In this document: positions 1 through 39,794 of the stretch, piece by piece
Layout: each line of letters opens with the position of its first letter
How positions within the stretch are numbered: position 1 is the first letter of the stretch
Source: a virus
Reading direction: 5' to 3' (one strand)
DNA: 39,794 nucleotides
UHGV virus genome: UHGV-0220445
Program-made: the position numbers and the translations under genes
The notes under the pieces: generated by a model
The model's input: the letters and a program-made list of their open reading frames with translations, nothing else
Database searches by the model: none
Told to the model about the DNA's origin: nothing

Positions 1-136
1 ACCCCCTTGTAATGCTTGGGGGAATAGCCCCGTCGATGATTCATGAGGAATGATTTTCCGAATTGGAACTGCAATTTTCCATAGAGATGTTGCAGTTACA
101 ATTTCTATTGCTCGTCTACAATCACCGTTAAAAGGC
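1..136. repeat. Inverted repeat IR1, left arm (136 bp, perfect reverse complement of 463-598)
   Basis: Direct comparison: rc(1..136) equals 463..598 base for base; repeat abuts window edge so full extent is unknown. Confidence 0.9.
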
Positions 137-398
137 TAATATCATCTTCATCAATCCACTGAGTAATACCAGCAATACAATCTTTGTAGACAATATCAAC
201 TACTTTACCAACAAGTGAATCAATTCTATCAAATAGCTTCTTACCAATGAATAATCTCTCAACAATATTACCTTGAAGATCATTACAATCTACTAGATAA
301 CGCTCTGAAAAATCATCAGTAGCTTTAAGAACACTAATACTATTCAATACAACTGCATTCAACTTCTTAGTTTCCGGTGCATTAATTAAAGTATTCAT
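105..398 (-). CDS. Hypothetical small protein (97 aa) whose 3' third lies inside IR2/IR1
   Basis: ORF track; weak ribosome-binding site; coding status uncertain. Confidence 0.3.
   Translation of the reverse strand: MNTLINAPETKKLNAVVLNSISVLKATDDFSERYLVDCNDLQGNIVERLFIGKKLFDRIDSLVGKVVDIVYKDCIAGITQWIDEDDISLLTVIVDEQ
137..218. repeat. Inverted repeat IR2, left arm (82 bp, perfect reverse complement of 613-694)
   Basis: rc(137..218) equals 613..694; flanking bases 136/695 and 219/612 mismatch, so IR2 has a different symmetry centre from IR1. Confidence 0.9.
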
Positions 399-462
399 AA
401 CACAAATAGCAATTACCTTTACATTGCGAGGTTCTAATTATTATTAATTGAATTAATTCCAT

Positions 463-598
463 GCCTTTTAACGGTGATTGTAGACGAGCAATAGAAATTG
501 TAACTGCAACATCTCTATGGAAAATTGCAGTTCCAATTCGGAAAATCATTCCTCATGAATCATCGACGGGGCTATTCCCCCAAGCATTACAAGGGGGT
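463..598. repeat. Inverted repeat IR1, right arm
   Basis: Perfect reverse complement of 1..136. Confidence 0.9.
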
Positions 599-612
599 GC
601 TGTCGTATAAGG

Positions 613-694
613 TCACTTGTTGGTAAAGTAGTTGATATTGTCTACAAAGATTGTATTGCTGGTATTACTCAGTGGATTGATGAAGATGATATTA
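613..694. repeat. Inverted repeat IR2, right arm
   Basis: Perfect reverse complement of 137..218; encodes the same 27-aa peptide SLVGKVVDIVYKDCIAGITQWIDEDDI as the minus-strand ORF 105..398. Confidence 0.9.
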
Positions 695-998
695 ACGAAG
701 AAGTTCGATTTCATACTGTAGATCATAAGCAAGTTGTTGATATTGTTAAAATTAATGATATTAATCTATTGATTGCTTGTATTAAAGCTGGTATGAAAGA
801 TATGTATAATGATTTAAAATTATTGAATCAATGAGAATTACTAGAGTTATACCTGGCACCACGTAAAATGCGCTTCGGTATCTCCGAAGGCATGGTGATG
901 GCTGCTGGCCCTGGCGGAAAAGATATCTTCCTGTTAAGCCCGGATGCTGGTGCTAAACCTGGCCACCAGGTTAAGTAATTAAACAACCTCTCTTCGCA

Positions 999-3411: not shown

Positions 3412-3730
3412 GGCGTACCGGTATAGCGAGAGGGAGAGTTGCGGCTACCCACCTGTAATGTGCGGGAAGAAGAGAGGCGCTCACGTGCAGGCGAACTTAC
3501 TTACCGCTGGATTCCCTCTGAATGCCCAGCTACAGCGTAATTGTGCCAGACAGCCAACGGGTCACAATCGATTTCAGTAGGTTTTCGGGGAGATGATTAT
3601 TCTGCCCACCAGCCACCTTCGGCCACTAAATCAGAATAATGTAAAAAGTGTACTCGGTACTGAACCTGAAAACTCACTGCCAAAACCACATTCACCGGAA
3701 TAAAATCCTTTTTCGCCTGTGCGTTATTGC

Positions 3731-3764
3731 GATAATAACACCATCAAGAAAACATGTTGTTTAA
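3731..3764 (+). promoter_or_regulatory. Early promoter (TGcGATAAT extended -10) plus leader motif caagaaaacatgttgttt
   Basis: gataat ~3731-3736 preceded by tgc; motif ~3745-3764; ATG 3775. Confidence 0.45.
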
Positions 3765-4210: not shown

Positions 4211-4248
4211 TGGTATTATTTACGCCATTGAGAAAACAAGTTGTTTAC
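4211..4248 (+). promoter_or_regulatory. Early promoter (TGgTATTAT) plus leader motif gagaaaacaagttgtttac
   Basis: Same architecture as other early genes. Confidence 0.4.
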
Positions 4249-5127: not shown

Positions 5128-5137
5128 TAAGCCCGAT

Positions 5138-5183
5138 AACAATTTGTTTTCTGCCTTATCTGATTTGTGAAAATGATTTCACT
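5138..5183 (+). promoter_or_regulatory. Early promoter: motif aacaatTTGTTTtctgcc (-35-like TTGTTT) ~19 bp upstream of GAAAAT
   Basis: Sequence pattern shared with 1062-1100. Confidence 0.4.
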
Positions 5184-5208: not shown

Positions 5209-5583
5209 ATGGGACTTGATATCTATATCGAGACACAGCCTAAAAACGATCTGAATAACGAGGCATCCAGAAAGCAGGTTGCTTACTTCCGTAAGTTCAA
5301 TGCGCTCGTTGGGTGGATGGAGCGCAACGTAGGTGAAGTCGAAAATTGTGAGCTTTTAGAATTAACGATGAATGACATTTGTTTTCTGAAGGCTCATTTG
5401 ATGCACATAAACGAAAGCAATTGCGAAGAGTACTTGCCTACCCGGGAAGGTTTTTTCTTCGGCAGTCAGGAGTACGATGAAGGTTACTGGCATGATGTGG
5501 GGCAGTTGAAAGAGCTTGTGGAAGACCTGATTAAGAACCACGACTTTCACAATAACAGACTGACCTTCTGCGCCTGGTGGTAA
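5209..5583 (+). CDS. Hypothetical early protein (~124 aa)
   Basis: ORF track (5167..5583); ATG 5209 follows SD aagga. Confidence 0.5.
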   Translation: MGLDIYIETQPKNDLNNEASRKQVAYFRKFNALVGWMERNVGEVENCELLELTMNDICFLKAHLMHINESNCEEYLPTREGFFFGSQEYDEGYWHDVGQLKELVEDLIKNHDFHNNRLTFCAWW

Positions 5584-5585
5584 AT

Positions 5586-5729
5586 ATGGGCGATTTCAAG
5601 AAACGCCTGAAGGAAAGAGCCGAGATGGTCAGAAAGCAAAACGCCTCTTCTGTCATCAGATACGCAAGGCAGTTTAGTCGCAACAACAAATCAGTTGAGG
5701 AAAAGATCCTTAGCGTAATCGGTCGATAA
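5586..5729 (+). CDS. Possible small basic protein (47 aa)
   Basis: ATG 3 nt after previous stop; followed by hairpin; below ORF-track length cut-off. Confidence 0.3.
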   Translation: MGDFKKRLKERAEMVRKQNASSVIRYARQFSRNNKSVEEKILSVIGR

Positions 5730-5734
5730 TTATT

Positions 5735-5758
5735 AAGGCCACCAGCATTGGTGGTCTT
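5735..5758 (+). repeat. Conserved stem-loop aaggccacca-gcat-tggtggtctt (copy 1)
   Basis: Near-identical copy at 6206-6229; both directly follow a gene. Confidence 0.6.
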
Positions 5759-5867
5759 AAATGACTTTTAATAACCGAAGGTTAGTTTGAAACCTGGCTA
5801 TCAACTTCCAGAACCTTTCTTGTGTATTCAGCCTGTATTAACTTCTTTTATGCCTTATCTACACTGC

Positions 5868-5901
5868 GATAATTACACCAACAAGAAAACAACATGTTTA
5901 C
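5868..5901 (+). promoter_or_regulatory. Early promoter (TGcGATAAT) plus leader motif caagaaaacaacatgtttac
   Basis: Same architecture as 3731-3764. Confidence 0.45.
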
Positions 5902-5912
5902 GCAGTGAGGAT

Positions 5913-6200
5913 ATGCTCATGACTGATTTCACCATTACCCCTAAAGCACAAAATGTATTCCTTGAATCATGGCTGGACTTGCCGGAAACAGAACAGCAAG
6001 AAATGGATCATGTGGATTATGACGAGCAGGTAAGCACGCGATTCTTCCACTTTGAGGGATGCGTTTACGACATTGCCGACTTCATGCGAGATGACCGCTT
6101 CCCTGGATGGCACGCCAGTTATCCACTAAACGCCTTTGCCATGCTGATGATCCGTGTGGGTGATTCAGGGGATACCATCGACATCGGTCTGCTCCACTAA
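5913..6200 (+). CDS. Hypothetical early protein (~95 aa)
   Basis: ORF track (5787..6200); start at ATG 5913 or 5919 downstream of promoter motif. Confidence 0.45.
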   Translation: MLMTDFTITPKAQNVFLESWLDLPETEQQEMDHVDYDEQVSTRFFHFEGCVYDIADFMRDDRFPGWHASYPLNAFAMLMIRVGDSGDTIDIGLLH

Positions 6201-6205
6201 AGACT

Positions 6206-6229
6206 AAGGCCACCAATGCTGGTGGCCTT
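6206..6229 (+). repeat. Conserved stem-loop aaggccacc-aatgct-ggtggcctt (copy 2)
   Basis: Perfect 9-bp stem; followed by C-rich G-poor tract 6236-6330. Confidence 0.6.
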
Positions 6230-6330
6230 AAATGACCATCCTGTTTCCCGCAGGCTAAAAACACCAACCTCTTACCTCCAGGCAACCGACAAACCCACCT
6301 GTTCCCGTCCGGCTACCGCAACTTTCCACT

Positions 6331-6389
6331 TTGACGCCTTATTCGTACAACGATAATTAACACCAACAAGAAAACAATATGTTATTTAC
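6331..6389 (+). promoter_or_regulatory. Early promoter TTGACG-15-GATAAT plus leader motif caagaaaacaatatgttatttac
   Basis: Best sigma70-like match among the early promoters. Confidence 0.5.
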
Positions 6390-6404
6390 GATAAGGAATT
6401 AATC

Positions 6405-6887
6405 ATGAATTTTATCGCTACTGTAAACGCACCCGCACATGGCAATATCGCTGTAACGTTCTCTGACATTGAAAAACGAGTACTTGGTGCCTGGCGTCAC
6501 AATGAGACGGTAGAACTGTCAGAACAAGAAAAATGCATTATTGCACGCGACATCATTGGCAATCGTCGTTACTCGCGGGTATTTGAGAAAGCGTATGTGG
6601 TAAATTCTGGGTTCGGAACGTTCGTCTTTCCGGTGCGCTCCGGGCGATTCTGCCAGTCCAAGCTGATTGAGTTCGCTACGCAGATTTCTGTCTGGATTAA
6701 AACTCAATCGTCGTTCAAATTTTCCGACGATGAAGCAGTATCGCAGGGGATGCGGATCGCCAACAATGCGATTAAATGCAAAAACATTACGTATACCGCT
6801 GGCGTTGACACATGGAAACTGTTTTGCGCTAACTTTATGCTGAATGTATACGCAAGCAACCGCATCCACATCCTTGATGGCGTGTAA
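6405..6887 (+). CDS. Hypothetical early protein (160 aa)
   Basis: ORF track; SD aagga upstream. Confidence 0.55.
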   Translation: MNFIATVNAPAHGNIAVTFSDIEKRVLGAWRHNETVELSEQEKCIIARDIIGNRRYSRVFEKAYVVNSGFGTFVFPVRSGRFCQSKLIEFATQISVWIKTQSSFKFSDDEAVSQGMRIANNAIKCKNITYTAGVDTWKLFCANFMLNVYASNRIHILDGV

Positions 6888-6890
6888 CTG

Positions 6891-6920
6891 AGAAGAGGGC
6901 CAGAAACGGCCCTTTCTCTA
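6891..6920 (+). terminator. Putative terminator (agggcc-agaaac-ggccct + TTTCTCT)
   Basis: Stem-loop immediately after stop at 6887. Confidence 0.45.
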
Positions 6921-6936
6921 TAGCCACCAGCTGCCG

Positions 6937-7014
6937 CAGGGAAATTTTCAGAAACGGCGAGGAACGTATTCATGAGCCGACGGGAAACGGCCAGGATTTT
7001 TTCGGGAAACGGCG
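6937..7014 (+). repeat. Second iteron-like array (cagggaaa, cagaaacggcg, cgggaaacggcc, cgggaaacggcg)
   Basis: Same repeat family as 3281-3411. Confidence 0.55.
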
Positions 7015-7436
7015 GGGGTCGCCTTTATGTAGAAAACTGAGCGGGAGAAACCCGGAATCGCGCCAGAAATTGCGTAGCGGCGCTGGGGTATCGCTGGTGG
7101 GGGGGTCAGCCCCTGGGCCATCCAGATAGCTTTCGCTATGTGATTATGTGAATCCGTGGGTAAATCACTGTAAGCGCGTACACGTTGCCCAACGTGGCAA
7201 TCATACGCGAGCGGATACGGAACAAAACAAAATGCCGATCTGCGCCGACAAATAAACGCGGATCACATAGCAAGACTAAAAGCCAATGATTAGCCATACG
7301 TTATAGCGCAATATAACGCATTTTGAGCGCGTTAATGTGTTAAGTAATGGGTATGTACTGGTAAGGATATAAAAGCGCGTCTATGGCGTTATTTTGGCGC
7401 TTATTTTTATGTTGTTGGAGTGAGTCAAAGACAATA

Positions 7437-7466
7437 AAAAAACGCGCCAATGATGGCGCGTTTTGG
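7437..7466. terminator. Bidirectional terminator-like hairpin (A-run, cgcgcca-atga-tggcgcg, T-run)
   Basis: Symmetric A/T tracts around a GC stem, between convergent gene blocks. Confidence 0.55.
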
Positions 7467-7486
7467 TGGGAGTATTGGAAACGAAA

Positions 7487-7507
7487 AAGCGCCCATAGTG
7501 GGCGCTT
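7487..7507 (-). terminator. Hairpin agcgccca-tag-tgggcgct, partial copy of the 37-bp leader repeat
   Basis: Immediately past the stop of 7512..7742; T-rich on minus strand. Confidence 0.5.
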
Positions 7508-7511
7508 GATT

Positions 7512-7742
7512 TTATTTGTGCAAACTGATTTTAAATCCCATTTCTACAAACGCTTTTAGCATTAAAAATATATCAGCGTCATTCACGTCTGCTTTTTTTC
7601 GCTCCTGGTCGCTCAATAAGTCAATTTTGCGCGTCGTTTCATCGATAAACTCGACTGAGCGCCCAGCGTAACCAGCGATCCCAGCGATGCGATTAACAAA
7701 ATATTCATTGCGCACGTTAACGCCAGCGATAAGAATAAACAT
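7512..7742 (-). CDS. Small hypothetical protein (76 aa), paralog A
   Basis: ORF track; N-terminus shares MxIxIxGVN...IAG.AGYA with 7785..8012. Confidence 0.55.
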   Translation of the reverse strand: MFILIAGVNVRNEYFVNRIAGIAGYAGRSVEFIDETTRKIDLLSDQERKKADVNDADIFLMLKAFVEMGFKISLHK

Positions 7743-7776
7743 GATTAAGCTCCTTAAAAGCGCCCATAGTGGGCGC
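7740..7776 (-). repeat. 37-bp perfect direct repeat (start codon + SD + hairpin), copy 1
   Basis: catgattaagctccttaaaagcgcccatagtgggcgc identical at 7740-7776 and 8010-8046. Confidence 0.85.
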
Positions 7777-7784
7777 TATTGTTT

Positions 7785-8012
7785 TTATTTTTCTAAGTGA
7801 ATATTAAAGCCAGCGTTTAAAAATTCTTGAAGCATTAAAGTTACATCAGCTTCATGGATTCCTGCGCGCGCTCTATGTTCTACGTCATTGATGTTTATTT
7901 TAAACGTTGTTTCGTCAACCACTTCAGAACTTAGAGCATACCCAGCTAAACCAGCAATATCATAAACAAGAGTATGATTGTTGATATTTACGCCAGAGAT
8001 GAAAATAACCAT
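7785..8012 (-). CDS. Small hypothetical protein (75 aa), paralog B
   Basis: ORF track; paralogous to 7512..7742. Confidence 0.55.
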   Translation of the reverse strand: MVIFISGVNINNHTLVYDIAGLAGYALSSEVVDETTFKININDVEHRARAGIHEADVTLMLQEFLNAGFNIHLEK

Positions 8013-8046
8013 GATTAAGCTCCTTAAAAGCGCCCATAGTGGGCGC
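8010..8046 (-). repeat. 37-bp perfect direct repeat, copy 2
   Basis: Identical to 7740-7776. Confidence 0.85.
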
Positions 8047-8059
8047 CAGATTCCATTAA

Positions 8060-8710
8060 TTACGCTTTGAAAGCATCAGCCAGATAGTTATAGAAATCAT
8101 TTTTAATAAAGCGATATTGCTGAGTACCAGCTTTCGCGCTCCCAGCTCCTTTGACTTTTTCAACAAGTCCGAGACGTTCGCAAAGATTGATCAACTGGTT
8201 GGCTTGAGTATAGCCAGCGTCCAATTTAATTTCACACGCTTTTTTAGCTTCATTCATTAAATCGAAAACAGCGCCATTAGTGAACGTGTCGATCTCGTCG
8301 TTAATCATATCGATTAAAGCGAATACACGAGATCCGGACATATCAGCGACGGAATAAACACACTTTCCAGCTTTAATGGATTTAACCAGATAAACCAGTT
8401 TTTCCAGAGAATAACTGTTAGTCATTGCATCACGGAAAAAAACTTCTGGCGCTTGTTTGCTTGCTTTGATCGCATAGTAGAAAACAGAGCATAATTTTTC
8501 GTCTTCTACAGCGTTTACAACGTTGTTGATGAAGTAAGCAAGTTTAGTGGTAGCAGCTTGCATATTTGCTTTATCTGCTTTGGTGTGCGTACCATTTTTA
8601 TAATGTTCGTTATATGTTTGAGTTGCCAGATCTGCTTTTTCGCGCAGTTCATCGGATACAATGGAAGCAGCTTCAATGATGGATTTTTTAGAAATGATAA
8701 TGTTAGTCAT
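8060..8710 (-). CDS. Hypothetical protein (216 aa)
   Basis: ORF track; no family recognised. Confidence 0.5.
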   Translation of the reverse strand: MTNIIISKKSIIEAASIVSDELREKADLATQTYNEHYKNGTHTKADKANMQAATTKLAYFINNVVNAVEDEKLCSVFYYAIKASKQAPEVFFRDAMTNSYSLEKLVYLVKSIKAGKCVYSVADMSGSRVFALIDMINDEIDTFTNGAVFDLMNEAKKACEIKLDAGYTQANQLINLCERLGLVEKVKGAGSAKAGTQQYRFIKNDFYNYLADAFKA

Positions 8711-8966
8711 GATAATATCCTTATGAAAGTTTAAAATTTAACTCAAGAAAGAAAGTGTTTTGCACTCGTTCCTGATGCGTTCAATTATCGACACGCGAAA
8801 AAAGATTGCAAGTGTTTTTTTTAATTTTTTGCAGGGACGAAAGTCCTAGAAATAAAAGCGAGATCGTCGAAGGTGTTCCCTAAATAAATAATAAATTCCG
8901 GCTTTTGACCTTATATATTTATACGGGGGAGAATTGAAAGGGTATTAAATGAATGGCATGTAAAAT

Positions 8967-8990
8967 AATAACCGGACTTAGCCGGTTATT
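8967..8990 (-). terminator. Putative terminator hairpin (aataaccgg-acttag-ccggttatt)
   Basis: 9-bp stem just past the stop of 9004..9525. Confidence 0.4.
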
Positions 8991-9003
8991 ACCCTTATAG
9001 AAA

Positions 9004-9525
9004 TTAAAACGGAAGGATTCGTTCAACCCAATCGAAGAAAACAAGTATTTTTCTGCCGTCTTCTAACTTAAGAGTGACCTGGCAAGCATCAACGCCTCTT
9101 GATACCCCTTCTATTTCACGACCGTCTGCCATGTAGACCCTTATAGATTGGTCGTTTTGATAAGCCTTGCGACATATCGCAAAAAAGTCACGACGTGATG
9201 GCTGATTAACCATCTGTTCATTGTTCAGTGTTAGTCGACCTGTGAATGAAGTGTCAACCTCTTCTATGCCTGACTCAATTGTGCTAATGCGCTCAAGAGG
9301 GAGCCTTACACGATTTGTGTTGCTAAACGGATCTGGTGTGAGGTTCAGCTTATTTCTTGCGCTCAACAGCCCGTAGACATACATGCAAAACACTTGGCCG
9401 TCTTCGAGAGTGACTCTTACAGGAAATTTTGCACTCCGCCAGAAGAGCAAGGTGCGCTCAGCATGTTCGTAGTCTCGCGGCCAGACTTCAGCCGGTATGC
9501 CGTAGGTGATGTCCAATGTTTTCAT
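9004..9525 (-). CDS. Hypothetical protein (173 aa)
   Basis: ORF track; start overlaps the stop of the upstream gene. Confidence 0.5.
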   Translation of the reverse strand: MKTLDITYGIPAEVWPRDYEHAERTLLFWRSAKFPVRVTLEDGQVFCMYVYGLLSARNKLNLTPDPFSNTNRVRLPLERISTIESGIEEVDTSFTGRLTLNNEQMVNQPSRRDFFAICRKAYQNDQSIRVYMADGREIEGVSRGVDACQVTLKLEDGRKILVFFDWVERILPF

Positions 9526-10115
9526 TCTGATACTCTTAGAGGTGTTTTCAGCAACCCAAATTTAAATTCTTTGTTACCAACGACAAAGAAGGGAACCTCA
9601 ACATAGATTTTTTTATCGACGGATTTAGAGTTCGCTGTTTTCTGTATGTCACGAACGATACGTTTTGAGGTATTTTCATCGATAAACAATACCTTTCCAC
9701 TTGTATTCCCTTCAGCCTTGGCGTAAGTAACGATAGGGTCTTCATTGCCAACCCTAATGTTTACTTGGCAACCTGTTGTAGCCATTTCATCACAGTAAAG
9801 TGTGCCGTCTTGAACTTCTAAAACAATTCCAGATGGCTTCATGGCTTCGTCAGAGCTTACATTAACGTTTTCTGGTACAGCGGTCCCGTTAATTTGCAAC
9901 CGTAATCTTTCTTTTCCTGCATTAAGTATTGTTTCTTCTGCGTTATCTGAGAATCTGAACCAGACTGGTTGAATCAGACCTCGTGATTCGTATTTTAGTA
10001 CGTCTTCAGAAGTATACATGCTGTACGTTTTTTGCATGTCGGAGACGATATCTGACAACGCATTTGCGGAAAATGACGAGAGGTATATACAAGCAAGAAG
10101 TAACGAACGTTTCAT
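9522..10115 (-). CDS. Secreted/periplasmic protein with N-terminal signal peptide (197 aa)
   Basis: N-terminus MKRSLLLACIYLSSFSANA: basic n-region, hydrophobic core, AxA cleavage motif. Confidence 0.55.
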   Translation of the reverse strand: MKRSLLLACIYLSSFSANALSDIVSDMQKTYSMYTSEDVLKYESRGLIQPVWFRFSDNAEETILNAGKERLRLQINGTAVPENVNVSSDEAMKPSGIVLEVQDGTLYCDEMATTGCQVNIRVGNEDPIVTYAKAEGNTSGKVLFIDENTSKRIVRDIQKTANSKSVDKKIYVEVPFFVVGNKEFKFGLLKTPLRVSE

Positions 10116-10200
10116 TTTTATACAGCGATTATTGCAAAGTAGAATTATAAATATCCAATAGTCTCAAACGATAAGTTTTCAACTGTAAATAGCAGACGTG

Positions 10201-10240
10201 TTTCTCTAAAAGCTGTGCGGCAAAGGCGTTGTTGCCGCAC
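10201..10240 (-). terminator. Intrinsic terminator on minus strand (gtgcggcaa / ttgccgcac stem + AGCTTTT)
   Basis: 9-bp stem followed by T-run on minus strand. Confidence 0.5.
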
Positions 10241-10295
10241 TCTGTCTATTAGCTCTTCAAGTCTGGCAATTCTGAAATTGACTAAGAATCCAATA

Positions 10296-10574
10296 TTACG
10301 GCAGTTTGCTTAGAATTTGCTCTAAATCTTCCTTTGTCATATTAGAGTTCTCATAGATGCGCATGATTTTCTCACGAGCCTTAGCAGAGACTCCAACGGC
10401 AGATGAAACTTTGTCAAATTCAGCCATTGTCATCGCTTCCAGAATGGTATTGATAACTTCAGCCTTAGACATTTTGATGTTTTTTTCTTTTAGTTTCATT
10501 TGAAACTTTCCAAGTTTGTCATTGGCCTTATCGGACAATGCCACCTGACAATAAGTTGTTTTCTTTTCGCTCAT
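10296..10574 (-). CDS. Hypothetical protein (92 aa), translationally coupled to helicase
   Basis: ORF track; starts 2 nt after the helicase stop. Confidence 0.45.
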   Translation of the reverse strand: MSEKKTTYCQVALSDKANDKLGKFQMKLKEKNIKMSKAEVINTILEAMTMAEFDKVSSAVGVSAKAREKIMRIYENSNMTKEDLEQILSKLP

Positions 10575-20960: not shown

Positions 20961-21881
20961 ATGCCAGAACAAAAGATGAAGATTACGGAAGAGGCATTTT
21001 CGGATTTTACGGGGCATATGTGCCGTGCCGGATTTACCAATTCTATCTCCGATGAACCTTTAACAGAGCGACAACAAAGTCAGCTATCTGCTTGTTTGCA
21101 GGCGGTTCCCTTCTCCCAATCCGTAAACATAACCCCGGCTTCACCGTCAGTTTTGGTTGGGAAAACTGTTCAACTTAGTGCAGGTATTACTATGGGTAAG
21201 AGTGCCAGTTCATTCACCTGGAAGTCAGCCAATGATCAAATTGCAACCGTCAACGGCACTGGATTAGTAACTGGCGTAGCACCAGGCAAAGTGAAAATTA
21301 CCGCAACTGATCAGGAAACCCAGCTTTCCGCGTCAGTGGAAGTCACCGTAAATCCGGTAGCCGTTCAATCCGTAACGGTAACGCCAGACTCAACCTCTGT
21401 TGAGAAAGGGAAATCAGTCAGTCTGAAAGCGAATGTTCAGCCGTCAAATGCGACGAATAAGGCAGTTACCTGGTCTTCCAAAAATAAAGACAAGGCAACG
21501 GTAGACCAGAGCGGGAACGTTACTGGTGTAGAAGTTGGCACTGCGACGATTGAGATCGTTTCCCAAGATGGCAGCAAAAAGGCAACTGCAACGGTGGAAG
21601 TAACTGCGCCTGTTGTGGCTGTTACCGGCGTCGAAATCGACCCAAATAGCACAACCGTTGAGGCAAACAAAACTGTTCAGCTGACCGCAAATGTCGAGCC
21701 GGCAGGAGCAACAAATAAAACCGTTACTTGGGAATCCAAAAATACCGAGTTTGCAACGGTGGATAGCGAAACAGGTGTTGTAACTGGCGTTGCGGCTGGT
21801 ACTGCCACAATCGAGGTTACTACCCAAGATGGTAGCCACAAAGCGACAGCGACCGTAGAAGTCACTGCTGCACAGGAATAA
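20961..21881 (+). CDS. Protein with tandem bacterial Ig-like (BIG2-type) domains, likely capsid decoration
   Basis: Four repeats of pattern V.V.P...TV..G.TVQLTA.V.P..ATNK.VTW.S.N...ATVD..G.VTGV..G.ATI. Confidence 0.65.
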   Translation: MPEQKMKITEEAFSDFTGHMCRAGFTNSISDEPLTERQQSQLSACLQAVPFSQSVNITPASPSVLVGKTVQLSAGITMGKSASSFTWKSANDQIATVNGTGLVTGVAPGKVKITATDQETQLSASVEVTVNPVAVQSVTVTPDSTSVEKGKSVSLKANVQPSNATNKAVTWSSKNKDKATVDQSGNVTGVEVGTATIEIVSQDGSKKATATVEVTAPVVAVTGVEIDPNSTTVEANKTVQLTANVEPAGATNKTVTWESKNTEFATVDSETGVVTGVAAGTATIEVTTQDGSHKATATVEVTAAQE

Positions 21882-33119: not shown

Positions 33120-33136
33120 ACAAGGATTTTTTGAAC

Positions 33137-36100
33137 ATGGAACAGTTCAAGAAGAAAAAGCTACCGCTGTTTATTGCCGGTGCGGGTGGTAAAAAAAGCA
33201 GCAAAAGCTCCAGCCGTACACCGGTTGAAGCCGACGATACCGTAAATTCTCGTGCAATGGCCGCTATCCTCGATCTTCTTGGGGAAGGGGTAATTGGCGG
33301 CTTAGTAAATGGCGCAAGATCTATTTTTATCGACGATCTGCCGATTGTAAATGAAGACGGTTCCTCCAACTTCAGCGGAATCACATGGGATTTTCGCGAC
33401 GGTTCACAAGACCAGACTCCAATGTCTGGCTTTGATTTCGTTGAAACGCCTAAATCCGTCAATATCCAGTTAAAAAAAACACATTATGTAACGGTTTCAA
33501 TCGATAACGATGAAGCTGATCGGGTTCGTGTCATCATGAAGTTTCCTTCTTTGCGAAGCATAGATAAAAAAACTGGTGACACGAACGGTACGACTGTTGA
33601 GTACAAGTTCCAGATAGCAAATGGCGACTCAACATTTGTAGATGTGGTCGCTGAAGGTGAAAAAAGCGTTGGCATTAAGCTAACAGCAAAGAAGACAGGT
33701 GTTTATTACCGTAGCTATGAGCTGAAGCTGCCTAAGCCTGGACGAGCATACAAGGTTCGTGTGGTCCGTATTACCGATGATAACAGCAGCCAGTATCTCT
33801 ATAACGATACATGGGTGGACTCAATAGGTGAGATTGTAGATACACCGATGAACTACCCAAACTCTGTGCTGGTGGGTCTGAAGGTTAATTCTGAGCAGTT
33901 TGGTAGCACCATGCCATCTCGTTCGTATTTGGTACGTGGATTAAAAATTCGCGTGCCGTCAAACTACAACGAGGCCAGCAACACTTATGATGGTGTATGG
34001 GATGGCACTTTTAAGCTGTTGTCTTCTTCAAACCCCGCGTGGATTCTCTTTGATTTGCTGACCAATGCTCGATATGGCCTTGGTCAGTATGTGTCGGAAT
34101 CTATGATTGACCTTGGCCAGTTGTACCAGATTGGTCGATATTGTGACGAAGAGGTCGATGATGGTTTTGGTGGCAAAGAGAAACGCTTTGCAATCAATAC
34201 GCAGATCACCAGTCGACAGGACGCATACCGGCTAATTCAGGATATTGCCGGAGCATTCCGCGGCATGGTGTTTTGGGCTGGTGGGATGGTTAACATCATG
34301 CAGGATAGCCCATCAGATCCGGTAATGATGTTTACCAACTCTAACGTCAAAGATGGATTGTTTACCTATAAAGGTTCTGCGCGTAAAGATCGCCCATCCG
34401 TTGCGCTCGTAACCTACAACAACAAGGAGGACGGTTATAAGCAAAACATCGAGTACGTCGAAGATCAGGACGCAATGCGCCGTTATGGTGAGCGTAAAAC
34501 AGAAGTCGTAGCATTTGGCTGTACAAGCCGAGGGCAGGCTCACCGAGTTGGTTTGTGGCTTTTATATACCGCCAGAATGGAGTCGGATGTAATTACATTT
34601 ACTGCCGGCTTAGACGCGTCATTTCTGATGCCTGGTGAAACCGTTCTGATTCAGAACAAATATCGCGCAGGCAAACGTAACTCAGGTCGAATTGTGGCGT
34701 TTACCAAAAACAGCGTCACACTCGATGCGCCTGTGTCGTTAGCCAAAGGCGGCTGCTTTATTCGAATACTGAATCAGGAAGGCAAAATCGTTGAACGCGA
34801 TGTTCTTGAAACTGGCGAAAATATAACAAAAGTTACGTTTTCAAAAGCCCTGTCTTCGGCTGAAACGCCTGTTTTGAACGGCGTCTGGACTATTACAGAA
34901 CCAGACCTCGAACCTATGCGCGTTCGCATCGTTAACATCGCGCAGGGGGAAACGCCGGGTAGCTTTGACATCACCGCTGTTGAGAACAATCCGTCTAAAT
35001 ATGAGGCAATCGACAATGGTGCAACGCTGATTCCGCAGAATACGACGGTATTGGACCCAACTTACTCCAAGCCATCTAATTTGCAAATCACTGAAGGGAC
35101 TTATCTCTCAAGCCCGGGCAACCTGTCAGTAAAACTGACTGCAACATGGGAAGGGAAATCTCCAGAGTATTGGATCAGTTGGCGACGTTCTGATGAAAAC
35201 AATGTATCGAACTGGCAATCGGCGCGTGTAACCGAAGAGCAATACGAAATCGTTAATGTCGCGGAGAATGGACGCTACGACTTCCAGCTGTATGCGGTTT
35301 CATTCAACGGTAAAAAAACAGAGATTATCAGTGCCGTTTATCAGGTGTTGGGCACAATGACACCGCCGGATTCCCCAACGTCATTAACGGCCGTTGGAGA
35401 CTATCGTAATGTGATACTGAATTGGGTTAATCCAGATTCGGTAGACCTTGATCACATTAATGTTTACGCATCCCAGACCAACAATCTGGATACGGCGAAA
35501 CTGATCGCAGAGTCTGCAAGCACCACCTTTACACATGCTGGTCTTGGGGATAGCGAAACGTGGTATTACTGGGTTCGAGCATCGAACAAGCGAGGTATGT
35601 TAAGTCCTCCGAACTCAAACTTGGGTACAGAGGCGACAACTCGCGATGTACTGTCGTTCCTGACTGGCAAAATTACATCTTCCGAGCTTGGTCAGGCTCT
35701 GCTTGAGGACATCAACAGCAAAGCCTCTCAAGAAGCAGTTGACGAGTTAAATGAGCATATCAACCAGAGCGTCGAATCTTTGGAGGGGGCGGTAAACGAC
35801 GTTAAGGAAGATATAGCTGAATTAGATAAGCAGTTCAGCGATAACCTCGCGGATTTTGAAATAAAATTCAACGAGCGTAGCGATGCTTTGGAGAACGCAC
35901 AAACCGAGCTTAAAGGTGAGGTTTCGGCAACGATCGACAAGGTCAATGAAGCGTTTGAAAAAATTGATGCTACTGATGCTGCAATTGTTGAAATCGAAAA
36001 CACCGTATCTGAACACGATAAAGCTCTCGCTAATACAGTCGAGGCAATAAAGGCTGCAAGAGATGAAGCGGCGGCTCTTATTGCTAAGGAAAGCGAGGCT

Positions 36101-37864
36101 CGTGTTGAAGGCGATGCTGCAAACGCTAAACAACTGGAAGTGTTGCAGTCAACGGTAGAGGAAAGCTCCGCTGCCGTTGAAGAAATGAAAAAGACGGTTG
36201 CAGAGGTCGATCGTGCCAGTGCAGAACTGACTACGAACATTGAGGCGTTAGCCAAAACAAATATTGACCTGGCTCTTCGTCAAGATGAAGACCAGCACAA
36301 GCAGATGGTCAATAACGCGAAGATCGCAACAACACAGAAAACCTTTGCTGATGATATGTCTGCAATGGCCACGAAGGTTGAGGAAATTCGCGTAGAAATT
36401 GGCGAAGACATTAAGGCCAGTATTCTGGAAGAGTCCACCGCTCGTGCCGATGGCGATGAAGCGTTGGCAAAGCGTGTCACTCAGCTGCAATCTAAGTTTG
36501 AAGGAGATATCAGCGCGGCGATTAGTACAGAGCAGGAGGCTCGTACATCTGCCGATGAAGCTCTGACGACACAGATCACTCAGCTTGAGTCGAAAGTAAG
36601 CAACGATATCGTCGCAGCTATTAAGGAAGAGCAAGAAGCCCGAGCAACGGAAGATTCGGCTCTGGCAAGCCAGATCACCCAACTTCAGGCAAAGGTTGAT
36701 GATGATATTTCTGCTGCAATACGTAGTGAGCAGGAGGCCCGAGCAAGCGGGGACTCTGCGTTAGCCAAACAAATAAACCAGCTTCAGTCAAAGGTTGACG
36801 GTGATATATCCGCTGCCATCACTCAGGAGCAGGAGGCCAGAGCAAGTGCTGACCAGGCGCTCTCACGAGAAATTAACAGCCTGCGAGCACAAACCGGAAC
36901 TGATATTGCCGCAGCGGTTGCTGTAGAGACAAAAGCAAGGACTGATGCCGATAGTGCATTGTCTACCCAGATTACGTCTCTTACAGCAAAAGCTAATGAT
37001 CTCGAGGCGTCTCTTGCCAGAGAAACAACGGCTCGTGCAGATGGTGATACCGCTTTAACAAAAGAGGTTTCAAGTTTAAAAGCACAGACAGCGAAAGATA
37101 TTAGTGCGGCCGTTGCAGTTGAAACGCAGGCTCGAACTGATGCTGACTCGGCGTTGTCGTCTCAGATCACCAAGCTGACCTCTCAATACAAAGAGGATAT
37201 TAAAGCGGCTGTAGCAACCGAAACGAAAACGCGTACAGAGCAAGATGCTGCATTGGCGACTCAAATCACAAACTTAGAGTCTCAAACGGCAGCCAACATT
37301 TCCGCGGCGGTAACAACTGAAACGACAGCGAGAACGCAGGCAGATAATGCTCTGAGTGGGCGAATCGATACTCTGAAAGCAGAGGTGGATGGAAATACCG
37401 CGACAATTCAACAGCAGGCAACAGCTATTGCTGATACCAACAAAAAAGTATCAACCGCGTGGACGTTGAAAATGGAGACTTCAACGAGCGGAGGGCAGAA
37501 GTATGTTGCCGGTATTGCGCTTGGTATTGACACCACTGGGCTATCTCAGTTTTTGGTTCAGGCGGACAGGTTTGGTTTGGTCAACTCTGTTAACGGGAAG
37601 ATCACAACGCCATTTGTTATCGAAAACAGTATCGCCTATATGAATGGAGCGTATATCAAGGATGGCACAATCACCAATGCAAAAGTAGGCGATCTGCAAT
37701 CTACCAATTTTGTTAGCGGTAGATCTGGATGGCGGTTCGGCAAAAATGGAACGCTTGAGATCAACGGTAATAGCGGCGGCAATGGGCGATTGGTTATAAA
37801 TGGTCAGCGGATTGACGTTTATGACGATAACAACGTCCTACGAGTAAGAATTGGCCGTCTGTGA
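33137..37864 (+). CDS. Tail tip / central fibre protein (lambda gpJ-like, ~1575 aa) with C-terminal 35-aa tandem repeats
   Basis: N-terminal half resembles J-family sequence (NPAWILFDLLTNARYGLGQY); ORF track starts at TTG 33131, ATG 33137 follows SD aagga. Confidence 0.8.
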   Translation: MEQFKKKKLPLFIAGAGGKKSSKSSSRTPVEADDTVNSRAMAAILDLLGEGVIGGLVNGARSIFIDDLPIVNEDGSSNFSGITWDFRDGSQDQTPMSGFDFVETPKSVNIQLKKTHYVTVSIDNDEADRVRVIMKFPSLRSIDKKTGDTNGTTVEYKFQIANGDSTFVDVVAEGEKSVGIKLTAKKTGVYYRSYELKLPKPGRAYKVRVVRITDDNSSQYLYNDTWVDSIGEIVDTPMNYPNSVLVGLKVNSEQFGSTMPSRSYLVRGLKIRVPSNYNEASNTYDGVWDGTFKLLSSSNPAWILFDLLTNARYGLGQYVSESMIDLGQLYQIGRYCDEEVDDGFGGKEKRFAINTQITSRQDAYRLIQDIAGAFRGMVFWAGGMVNIMQDSPSDPVMMFTNSNVKDGLFTYKGSARKDRPSVALVTYNNKEDGYKQNIEYVEDQDAMRRYGERKTEVVAFGCTSRGQAHRVGLWLLYTARMESDVITFTAGLDASFLMPGETVLIQNKYRAGKRNSGRIVAFTKNSVTLDAPVSLAKGGCFIRILNQEGKIVERDVLETGENITKVTFSKALSSAETPVLNGVWTITEPDLEPMRVRIVNIAQGETPGSFDITAVENNPSKYEAIDNGATLIPQNTTVLDPTYSKPSNLQITEGTYLSSPGNLSVKLTATWEGKSPEYWISWRRSDENNVSNWQSARVTEEQYEIVNVAENGRYDFQLYAVSFNGKKTEIISAVYQVLGTMTPPDSPTSLTAVGDYRNVILNWVNPDSVDLDHINVYASQTNNLDTAKLIAESASTTFTHAGLGDSETWYYWVRASNKRGMLSPPNSNLGTEATTRDVLSFLTGKITSSELGQALLEDINSKASQEAVDELNEHINQSVESLEGAVNDVKEDIAELDKQFSDNLADFEIKFNERSDALENAQTELKGEVSATIDKVNEAFEKIDATDAAIVEIENTVSEHDKALANTVEAIKAARDEAAALIAKESEARVEGDAANAKQLEVLQSTVEESSAAVEEMKKTVAEVDRASAELTTNIEALAKTNIDLALRQDEDQHKQMVNNAKIATTQKTFADDMSAMATKVEEIRVEIGEDIKASILEESTARADGDEALAKRVTQLQSKFEGDISAAISTEQEARTSADEALTTQITQLESKVSNDIVAAIKEEQEARATEDSALASQITQLQAKVDDDISAAIRSEQEARASGDSALAKQINQLQSKVDGDISAAITQEQEARASADQALSREINSLRAQTGTDIAAAVAVETKARTDADSALSTQITSLTAKANDLEASLARETTARADGDTALTKEVSSLKAQTAKDISAAVAVETQARTDADSALSSQITKLTSQYKEDIKAAVATETKTRTEQDAALATQITNLESQTAANISAAVTTETTARTQADNALSGRIDTLKAEVDGNTATIQQQATAIADTNKKVSTAWTLKMETSTSGGQKYVAGIALGIDTTGLSQFLVQADRFGLVNSVNGKITTPFVIENSIAYMNGAYIKDGTITNAKVGDLQSTNFVSGRSGWRFGKNGTLEINGNSGGNGRLVINGQRIDVYDDNNVLRVRIGRL
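36400..37400 (+). repeat. About ten tandem ~105-bp (35-aa) coding repeats inside the J-like gene
   Basis: Repeating unit like EEQEARASADEALTTQITQLESKVSNDIVAAIK; DNA copies diverged. Confidence 0.75.
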
Positions 37865-37957: not shown

Positions 37958-39676
37958 ATGTGGTACAGGGAAGGTACTATCACATTTACACAGGGTAGCA
38001 ATACTCTGGTTGGGGCAGGGACAGCCTGGAACGTAACAGCTAATGGTGTGTTGCCGGGGATGATCGTCATTGGCCCCGACAATAAGCTGTATGAGATCAA
38101 GCGCGTAATAAGCGATACGAATATTGTTCTCTCAGAACCTTATACCGGCGAAACTCAGTCTGAGGTTCCGTGCCGAATCATTACGACCTATGAAGGCGAC
38201 TTAACACAGTTTAGCGCGCGCTTTACAGCACTAATGTCGCGTATGTCGGCTGATTCCAAGTCTATGCGCAGTTGGTTGACTGCTCTGGATGAGGTGACAA
38301 TCGAGCGTGAAGACGGTACAGAAGTAACCGTTAAGCCGCTAATGCAGATCGTCAACGAGCACAACGAAAACGTTGAGTGGTATAAAAATAACACTGACGC
38401 GATTGATGCTGCTGGCGACAAAGCTCGTGAGGCGGCGGCCAGTGCTGCCGCAGCAGCAGAAAGCGCCAATACCGCTGGAGAAAAAGCCTCTCAAGCGTCT
38501 CAAAGTGCATCCGCTGCGGCATCCTCACAAAGTGCCGCAAGTGCGAGTGCAACTGCTGCGAAAAAATCTGAAACGAATGCCGCAGCGTCACAACAATCAG
38601 CAGCCACTTCTGCATCCACCGCGACCACGAAAGCGTCAGAAGCTGCCACCTCAGCCCGGGATGCGGCGGCCTCAAAAGAGGCAGCGAAATCATCAGAAAC
38701 GAACGCATCCTTGAGCGCCAGTAGCGCAGCTTCCTCGGCAACGGCGGCAGCAAATTCCGCGAAGGCGGCAAAAACGTCCGAGACGAACGCTAAGTCTTCT
38801 GAGACGGCAGCGGGACAGAGCGCCTCAGCTGCGGCAGGCTCAAAAACAGCGGCTGCGTCGTCTGCCAGTGCCGCGTCAACAAGTGCCGGGCAGGCCTCAG
38901 CCAGTGCCACCGCCGCCGGAAAATCGGCAGAAAGCGCCGCATCATCCGCTTCAACAGCCACAACGAAGGCTGGCGAAGCCACTGAACAGGCCAGCGCAGC
39001 AGCGAGGTCTGCTTCCGCAGCGAAGACATCCGAAACGAACGCGAAAGCGTCGGAAACCCGTGCAGAATCCTCAAAAACGGCAGCCGCATCGTCCGCCAGT
39101 TCGGCAGCGTCATCGGCATCATCGGCGTCTGCTTCAAAAGATGAGGCGACCAGACAGGCGTCAGCAGCGAAGAGCAGCGCCACGACGGCATCCACGAAGG
39201 CGACAGAGGCAGCTGGCAGTGCGACGGCGGCAGCTCAGAGCAAAAGTACGGCGGAATCCGCGGCAACGCGCGCCGAGACAGCAGCTAAACGGGCAGAGGA
39301 TATTGCATCCGCCGTGGCGCTTGAGGATGCAAGTACGACGAAAAAGGGGATAGTACAGCTCAGCAGTGCGACCAACAGCACATCTGAAACGCTTGCCGCG
39401 ACACCGAAGGCAGTTAAAGCAGCGAATGACAATGCGAATGGCAGGGTACCATCTAACCGAAAAGTTAACGGGAAAGCACTGACTGCGGATATAACATTAA
39501 CACCGAAAGATATTGGCACTTTAAATTCAGTAACGATCTCTTTCTCTGGCGGGGCAGGGTGGTTCAAACTGGCAACGGTTACCATGCCACAAGCGAGTTC
39601 CATCGTTTACATCGCATTGATTGGTGGCGCTGGTTACAACGTCGGCTCCCCACAGTGTTTACACCTGGAAGGTTAA
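37958..39676 (+). CDS. Side tail fibre protein (Stf-like) with Ala/Ser-rich repeats
   Basis: Repeats of KxSETNA/AAxSA and motif QLSSATNSTSETLAATPKAVKAA, which I recall from P2 gpH / Stf-family fibres. Confidence 0.75.
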   Translation: MWYREGTITFTQGSNTLVGAGTAWNVTANGVLPGMIVIGPDNKLYEIKRVISDTNIVLSEPYTGETQSEVPCRIITTYEGDLTQFSARFTALMSRMSADSKSMRSWLTALDEVTIEREDGTEVTVKPLMQIVNEHNENVEWYKNNTDAIDAAGDKAREAAASAAAAAESANTAGEKASQASQSASAAASSQSAASASATAAKKSETNAAASQQSAATSASTATTKASEAATSARDAAASKEAAKSSETNASLSASSAASSATAAANSAKAAKTSETNAKSSETAAGQSASAAAGSKTAAASSASAASTSAGQASASATAAGKSAESAASSASTATTKAGEATEQASAAARSASAAKTSETNAKASETRAESSKTAAASSASSAASSASSASASKDEATRQASAAKSSATTASTKATEAAGSATAAAQSKSTAESAATRAETAAKRAEDIASAVALEDASTTKKGIVQLSSATNSTSETLAATPKAVKAANDNANGRVPSNRKVNGKALTADITLTPKDIGTLNSVTISFSGGAGWFKLATVTMPQASSIVYIALIGGAGYNVGSPQCLHLEG

Positions 39677-39794
39677 TATTTGCAGAACCGTCGAAAACAA
39701 CTCCACCGATAGATCTTGCCGTCTGCAATTTCGTGGCTGTACTTGCATTACCATTCAATGAACCAGTTAATCCACCTGTAACAGACAACGGACC
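39579..39794 (-). CDS. Partial minus-strand ORF with tail-fibre-like motif, 5' end beyond window
   Basis: Translation SVTGGLTGSLNGNASTATKLQTARSIGGVVFDGSANINLPGVNT; overlaps 3' end of plus-strand fibre gene. Confidence 0.3.
   Translation of the reverse strand, partial: GPLSVTGGLTGSLNGNASTATKLQTARSIGGVVFDGSANINLPGVNTVGSRRCNQRHQSMRCKRWNSLVAW

Follow-up and report, generated by a model that had tools for sequence, protein, structure and literature searches.

An inverted join within the tail-fibre gene of an SSU5-like phage-plasmid fragment, probably a chimeric contig tip

Invertible tail-fibre segments include Mu G/Gin, P1 C/Cin and p15B Min, and in Mu G-type systems the reading direction of the alternative segments, which start at the crossover sites, is away from those sites. 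For the e14 P segment, the repeat used by PinQ, PinR and PinE is CCTTCTCCCAAACCAA, and Pin enzymes of the host are able to work in trans, on a different element (PMC12529663). Oppositely oriented sequence is also a known product of DNA amplification, in which 85% of the chimeras are inverted and most are intramolecular, joining points less than 10 kb apart; at MDA chimera junctions, microhomology of at least 2 bp is found in 77% (PMC1855051). Similar artefacts have been reported for other library methods. Here, we compare with these systems a convergent tail-fibre arrangement at the right end of the virus genome UHGV-0220445, whose 39,794 nucleotides, read on one strand, constitute the window analysed in this work.

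Sequence comparison shows that the window is a piece, 39.8 kb long, of an SSU5-like E. coli phage-plasmid of ordinary type. The relative nearest to it, plasmid p1 of E. coli WEM25 (NZ_CP061531.1; 108,197 bp), is 99.59% identical to window 10326-39654 over 29,331 nt. Window 15000-39654 aligns with the Escherichia phages CMS-2020a and Cyrano at 98.4-98.5% identity over 97-99% and with Salmonella phage SSU5 at 80.7% identity over 88%, which places the element among the SSU5-like phage-plasmids. ParB-type, helicase and FljA-like genes are present in the window, as in SSU5. Rfam searches of the left 1.2 kb and of the whole window gave no match, nor did a tRNA scan.

At the right end of the window, the plus-strand fibre ORF (37958-39676) encodes 572 aa and terminates in ...GYNVGSPQCLHLEG, a C-terminal stretch that also reads ...IALIGGAGYNVGSPQCLHLEG. 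On the minus strand, the program-made list contains an ORF at 39579-39788, whose frame is in fact open up to the window edge at base 39794; translation from the edge gives the product GPLSVTGGLTGSLNGNASTATKLQTARSIGGVVFDGSANINLPGVNTVGSRRCNQRHQSMRCKRWNSLVAW, which runs from 39794 to the stop at 39579 as GPLSVTGGLTGSLNGNASTATKLQTARSIGGVVFDGSANINLPGVNTVGSRRCNQ...VAW. The two ORFs overlap at 39579-39676, that is, over 98 bp. A preliminary description of this DNA had reported a plus-strand fibre gene that ends at 39676 after a less protein-like tail, together with a minus-strand fibre-like ORF that enters from beyond the edge, stops at 39579 and overlaps the first by about 98 bp, and our ORF list and translations agree with it on both counts. 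The likeness to real fibre genes ends at 39654 on the plus strand and begins at 39654 on the minus strand, so that the limit of homology, which the preliminary description proposed to locate on each strand, is the same position on both. Since the similarity switches strand at this point, the ends CLHLEG* (plus) and VGSRRCNQ...VAW* (minus) are antisense read-through of the opposite piece, and this is the exact cause of the odd tail. More specifically, 39656-39676 on the plus strand is an out-of-frame antisense read-through in frame 2 of the inverted segment, yielding the junk tail CLHLEG and a stop, while 39579-39653 on the minus strand is, by translation, the antisense read-through of the genuine fibre part and yields the junk tail VGSRRCNQRHQSMRCKRWNSLVAW and a stop. 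The overlap of the two ORFs is a sharp sequence breakpoint and not a chance event. Nor is the fibre gene frameshifted, another possibility that had been raised.

Megablast of window 39300-39794 against 5,426 complete E. coli genomes returned many 100% matches, all ending at 39655, and no record covering at least 80% of the query. The last 145 nt, searched alone, matched at 100% from 39654 on, to a different set of fibre genes, which run on the strand opposite to the query. Across the breakpoint (39654-39655), where the sense parent is followed up to 39654 and the antisense parent from 39654, the window reads ...GGCTCCCCACAG|TGTTTACACCTGG..., the sense parent ...GGCTCCCCACAG|CAGGCAGGC... and the antisense parent ...GATTACCCGTAG|TGTTTACACCTGG.... 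Fibre sequence without the inversion has ...CCCCACA[T/G]CAGGCAGGC... at the break, and the collinear continuation of the gene past 39654 is ...CAGGCAGGCATTTCAG.... Microhomology at 39654/39655 amounts to 1 nt (A at 39654) with respect to pWEM25 and to 2 nt (AG) with respect to CACAG-type fibre alleles; the inverted join is sharp and essentially blunt.

The two sides of the join were then compared with single fibre genes. The first 1697 nt of the fibre (37958-39654, plus strand), which form the genuine 5' part and correspond to codons 1-566 of an ORF of ~1640 codons, are identical at 1697/1697 positions to the single fibre gene of E. coli WEM25 plasmid p1. Window 39654-39794 is identical to the same gene at 141/141 positions (8216-8356 of the compared pWEM25-p1 piece, 100%), in the orientation opposite to the rest of the gene; its portion past the join, 39655-39794, is on the minus strand and matches at 100% the reverse complement of nt ~2047-2187, codons ~683-729 (GPLSVTGG...NLPGVNT). 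In WEM25 p1, the two fibre pieces are collinear and spaced by 349 nt. The same layout, with piece A (window up to 39654), 349 nt and piece B (39654-39794) on one strand and in one ORF, is found in Cyrano, p4_0.2 and pWEM25, as well as in two Rac-type prophage stf genes, and across it the fibre protein reads ...GYNVGSP(H/Q)QAGISELV...(about 115 aa)...GPLSVTGGLTGSLNGNASTATKLQTARSIGGVVFDGSANINLPGVNT|TGNQNTT.... An un-inverted query (A356 plus the reverse complement of B139) was matched with 100% identity and 100% coverage by two records, as two collinear pieces across 843 nt, and was covered to at least 80% by 455 E. coli records. Because both pieces are collinear in one plasmid gene, the minus-strand "cassette" is the gene's own codons ~683-729 in reverse. 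In the window, position 1697 of the gene is accordingly joined to the opposite strand at position 2187, from where the sequence reads back, and the feature is the left edge of a 490-nt inversion or fold-back inside a single gene. The preliminary description had also offered a recombination breakpoint in a mosaic fibre locus, and with the breakpoint it came close: something does break here and the pieces are oppositely oriented, at an inverted join within one gene. The fibre gene occupies the same position after a J-like gene in the window, Cyrano, p4_0.2 and pWEM25, and over its comparable bases it is identical to one already in RefSeq. In the intact relatives, the fibre carries Gp34_trimer at ~aa 907-1008, and that of p4_0.2 also has a C-terminal Peptidase_S74 chaperone; the truncated fibre of the window matched no family in Pfam or NCBIfam scans.

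The left end of the window is also rearranged. A repeat scan showed that window 1-136 is the exact reverse complement of 463-598 and window 137-218 that of 613-694. These repeats belong to a foreign low-GC phage module (positions prefixed T), which the independent viral contig IMGVR_UViG_3300045988_068652 contains once and collinear, with its gene intact at 133 aa. Relative to this native module, the window has T15-150 forward, T476-1 reversed and T395-632 forward. More specifically, 1-136 (plus strand) is a second copy, in native orientation, of the part T15-T150 (5068-4933 of the compared native piece); 137-612 (minus strand) is T1-T476 reversed, bounded by the blunt joins 136/137 and 612/613 and carrying the 5' part of the 133-aa gene; and 613-850 (plus strand) is T395-T632 in native orientation with the 3' part of that gene, ending at a blunt join to the plasmid metG. 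By translation, one coherent gene is in this way split in two, with 398 to 137 on the minus strand and 613-833 on the plus strand, and the chimeric left-end ORF has a product of 97 aa; neither this product nor the chimeric 572-aa fibre product is listed in the assembly index. In 50,697 phage records, tblastn with the 133-aa protein gave no match. The join at 850/851 links the module bluntly to the end of metG and breaks a gene on each side; 851-978 (plus strand) is the last 128 nt of the phage-plasmid metG, which is intact in pWEM25 and Cyrano, and collinearity with these two begins there. Microhomology is 0 nt at 136/137, 612/613 and 850/851. The GC content is 33% in the module, 23-31% in its native contig and 47% in the plasmid. 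Where collinearity resumes, the metG sequence matches at 100% the chromosomal metG of 3,182 E. coli genomes, which makes this stretch a natural and expected point for an assembly to break. The possibility that the contig is circular, with its right end running on into the left, was rejected, as the fibre antisense sequence is not continued in window 1-600. For window 1-850, the only known donor is an uncultivated IMG/VR contig of 23-31% GC.

Altogether, the sequence has four illegitimate joins, of which three are local inversions; all are situated no further than 140 nt from one end or 850 nt from the other, and between these damaged ends the sequence is collinear with known plasmids. This distribution makes chimeric tips the simplest reading, and we consider it probable that the inverted join in the fibre gene is a chimeric contig tip, created by sequencing or assembly and without biological function. 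The window ends would be contig ends, as its odd length and the anomalies at both ends suggest, and the join would have been made in vitro or in silico and not in the cell. The contig follows the fibre gene in the sense direction up to 39654, jumps 490 nt downstream onto the opposite strand and reads back towards the break for 140 nt, to the end of the sequence. Such a molecule may have arisen by snap-back or template-switch, or as a ligation chimera, in amplification or library preparation; another conceivable origin is a mis-join by the assembler. The chimera could then have been used to extend the contig where the true path was ambiguous, an ambiguity attributable to stretches of the fibre gene that are 100% identical to other prophage fibre genes. 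All three inverted joins connect nearby points (<10 kb), with offsets of 490 nt at the right end and of 326 and 394 nt at the two blunt inverted joins of the left end. Their microhomology of 0-2 nt is at the low end for MDA and is compatible with either a minority MDA class or blunt ligation, MDA being one candidate process. It counts against this reading that a de Bruijn assembler with large k needs several supporting reads, or long reads, for a junction, so that the chimeric molecules must have been reasonably abundant, for instance after amplification. The largest default k of MEGAHIT is 141. That the 139-141-nt tail represents exactly one assembler k-mer was considered and set aside as a weak hint only, since the left tip, at 136 nt, does not fit.

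The preliminary description had favoured a different possibility, namely that this is the midpoint of an invertible segment of the Mu G, P1 C or e14 P type. In such a case, a programmed Din-family segment (Gin/Cin/Pin/Min type) would switch the fibre C-terminus under the action of an invertase encoded outside the window or of a host Pin in trans, as PinQ, PinR and PinE do on the e14 P segment. Oppositely oriented pieces within one fibre gene agree with this idea, as does the 100% identity of the terminal 141 nt to part of a Rac-type stf gene adjoining pinR, and the trans action of host Pin enzymes is on record (PMC12529663). The direction is wrong, however: the minus-strand piece points towards the join and, instead of supplying an alternative 3' end, belongs to the interior of the same ORF. 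Between the edges of the flipped 490 nt, just 1-2 nt are shared (CCCnnAG at best), and there are no inverted sites of 26 bp. Even when 3 mismatches were allowed, the e14 pix repeat CCTTCTCCCAAACCAA was absent from the fibre genes of the window, pWEM25 and the Rac-type prophage; its sole match, with 3 mismatches, at 21109 in a head gene, is at chance level, and the Din core AAACCNNGGTTT had no match in or near the fibre gene. No resolvase/invertase (serine recombinase) domain was detected in the window ORFs scanned, and no serine recombinase is annotated on the complete, near-identical plasmid pWEM25-p1, whose only recombination enzymes, a tyrosine recombinase and an ISL3 transposase, are each encoded at a distance of over 10 kb from the fibre gene. 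The search for a serine invertase and inverted crossover sites, proposed in the preliminary description, thus yielded neither in the window ORFs scanned, in pWEM25-p1 or at the segment edges. As for coding, the flipped 490 nt lie wholly within one ORF, with the chaperone gene absent from the segment, and contain stops in all three frames, after 6, 35 and 65 codons, so the product of the flipped gene would end after 566 genuine residues versus ~1640 codons when intact. At the population level, neither the junction 32-mer nor the predicted reciprocal junction ...GAAATGCCTGCCTG[C/A]TACGGGTAATCAG... was found in IMG/VR, JGI metagenome contigs or GTDB genomes, while the positive control, the sequence without the inversion, was present in 26 viral contigs, and all the viral contigs with both halves (15/15) have them collinear with the 349-nt spacer. 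None of 72,556 PLSDB plasmids covered at least 80% of the window sequence across the junction, and there were 0 flipped copies versus 455 collinear E. coli records. A host Pin acting in trans was likewise rejected, given neither sites nor a coding outcome. Failing on direction, sites, enzyme, coding and population, programmed inversion is rejected, and we give it almost no credence.

Other readings keep the join as a real feature of the DNA. A real but non-programmed illegitimate inversion or inverted duplication of ~490 nt, inside the fibre gene of this phage-plasmid, would cut the fibre at 572 aa (566 genuine). The distal two-thirds would be lost, and with them the trimerisation domain of Gp34 type, the receptor-binding end and a C-terminal Peptidase_S74 chaperone such as that of p4_0.2, and the phage would depend on the J-type tip protein alone. 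Taken by itself, the sequence agrees with what the left edge of such an inversion would look like, and the junction k-mers must have had read support. Some siphophages tolerate the loss of side or long fibres, and laboratory lambda has a frameshifted stf. However, a fixed inversion makes no repeat, and the contig should therefore have continued instead of ending 140 nt past the join; two further joins of this type are present at the opposite end, within unrelated DNA of foreign origin, and neither junction was found in any public collection searched. We regard a real rearrangement as unlikely, though it retains some weight. A tail-to-tail mosaic, in which the loss of both 3' ends by deletion would have brought a second, convergent fibre gene up against the first, draws on the fact that the best chromosomal matches of the halves, taken singly, are different prophage fibre genes, 55989-type (E. 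coli 55989) for A and Rac-type for B. Yet both halves are found at 100% in one gene, not only in pWEM25-p1 but also in a chromosomal prophage of NZ_CP035884.1, collinear and 349 nt apart, and no tail-to-tail arrangement occurred in any collection searched, making the mosaic highly improbable. Slightly more improbable still is that the joins are real as the physical DNA ends of a linear 39.8-kb sub-genomic phage-plasmid molecule, defective or aberrantly packaged, whose ends were healed in vivo by snap-back priming, with inverted duplications at both termini and capture of a fragment of a co-resident low-GC phage.

In conclusion, with chimeric contig tips as the preferred explanation, the convergent fibre feature is best not counted as a real feature of the biology. 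The result is mainly one of quality control, as the "convergent fibre cassettes", taken at face value, would wrongly point to a host-range inversion switch, and a real join would amount at most to a private knock-out that disables the long fibre. On the present evidence, it seems advisable to trim bases 39655-39794 and 1-850 ahead of annotation and of gene-content or host-range analysis and to treat the fibre gene as truncated by the contig end, and other contigs of the same data set may carry similar fold-back tips.

Compared with the known systems, the window shares with the Din family (Mu G/Gin, P1 C/Cin, e14 P/Pin, p15B Min) the presence of oppositely oriented fibre DNA within the tail-fibre gene of an enterobacterial temperate element. 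Unlike those systems, the window yielded no invertase, lacks inverted crossover sites and offers no alternative 3' end in frame; the segment has no chaperone genes, the relatives show no second orientation, and the antisense piece faces the join. A real join would give the window the same outcome as in laboratory lambda, namely a siphophage whose tip is of the J type and whose long fibre is disabled, but the lambda stf lesion is a 1-bp frameshift fixed in a laboratory lineage, whereas that of the window is an inverted join at a contig end. The joins resemble the fold-back chimeras of Lasken and Stockwell (2007; PMC1855051) in being inverted and intramolecular, in connecting points separated by a few hundred nt that share little or no homology at the join, and in that several joins occur per data set along with an occasional direct inter-molecular join; they differ in their microhomology of 0-2 nt and in being seen in an assembled contig instead of single reads. 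The SSU5-like fibre genes (WEM25 p1, NZ_CP061531.1; Cyrano CYRAN_21; p4_0.2, WP_245394457) lie in the same place after the J-like gene, and that of pWEM25 is 100% identical to the window at all comparable bases. The fibres of these relatives measure 1341-1640 aa, while that of the window is cut at codon 566 by the inverted join, and its layout becomes that of the relatives, A-349 nt-B, once the last 140 nt are turned round.

The left end of the window (1-850) consists of foreign low-GC phage DNA (GC 33%) in scrambled order, in which two pieces in native orientation (1-136 and 613-850) enclose a reversed one (137-612). The inverted joins at 136/137 and 612/613 are blunt and break up a 133-aa gene that is split in the window versus unbroken in IMGVR_UViG_3300045988_068652. 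At 850/851 the foreign piece meets the plasmid, again by a blunt join. Of the phage-plasmid metG that follows (851-978), no more than the 3'-terminal 128 nt (42 codons) are present; the gene is full-length in the relatives Cyrano, PhiR41_1 and pWEM25-p1 (a plasmid of E. coli WEM25). Since 851-978 is 100% identical to the chromosomal metG of thousands of E. coli genomes, this stretch is a likely break point of the assembly.

We also observed that metagenome 3300045988 of IMG/VR (contigs L007, L018, L021, L024, L026 and L031) contains the low-GC phage with the left-end module, together with several E. coli phage contigs of the stf family, in which the fibre sequence is normal. A sample like this one could be the source of both partners of the inter-genome chimera.

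Towards the other end of the window, a J-like tip protein of 1577 aa (33131-37864) contains coiled-coil units of ~33 aa (DISAAI..EQEAR...AL..QI.QLQ.KV) reiterated over about 600 aa. The fibre gene includes a low-complexity stretch rich in Ala and Ser (38400-39300), and the long antisense ORFs across it (up to 231 aa) are spurious. In pWEM25-p1, the fibre gene occupies 5480-10402 of the analysed sequence (L006), as an ORF of ~1640 codons without interruption whose start, at 10402, is identical to the fibre start in the window. The RefSeq record begins this CDS only at 9046, a start that looks placed too far downstream, and calls an opposite-strand "hypothetical protein" of 227 aa at 9177-9860.

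Several small elements are repeated. Two paralogous genes in tandem on the minus strand (7485-8057; period about 270 nt, 78% identical) are each followed by the hairpin AAAAGCGCCCATAGTGGGCGC (n = 3 copies), which looks like a terminator. A motif of 42 nt + 24 nt (...TTTTCTGCC...GATAAT / ...AAGAAAACAAnnTGTT), reiterated at 1059-1125, 3695-3761, 4222-4245, 5133-5174, 5832-5898 and 6360-6383, is intergenic, lies upstream of a run of small plus-strand ORFs and has the appearance of a reiterated promoter/operator. Finally, two copies of the palindromic element TTAAGGCCACCAGCATTGGTGGTCTTA (5733-5759 and 6205-6231), each itself a hairpin, flank the ORF 5787-6200 on both sides.

The minus-strand gene at 9004-9525 encodes a FljA-like protein ("repressor of phase-1 flagellin", PF03614, E 3e-69). 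At the nucleotide level, pWEM25-p1 contains nothing that matches the segment in which it lies (9001-10326). Homologues with 66-94% identity are present in every SSU5-like phage-plasmid checked, including those of Klebsiella, and in SSU5 the gene already carries this annotation.
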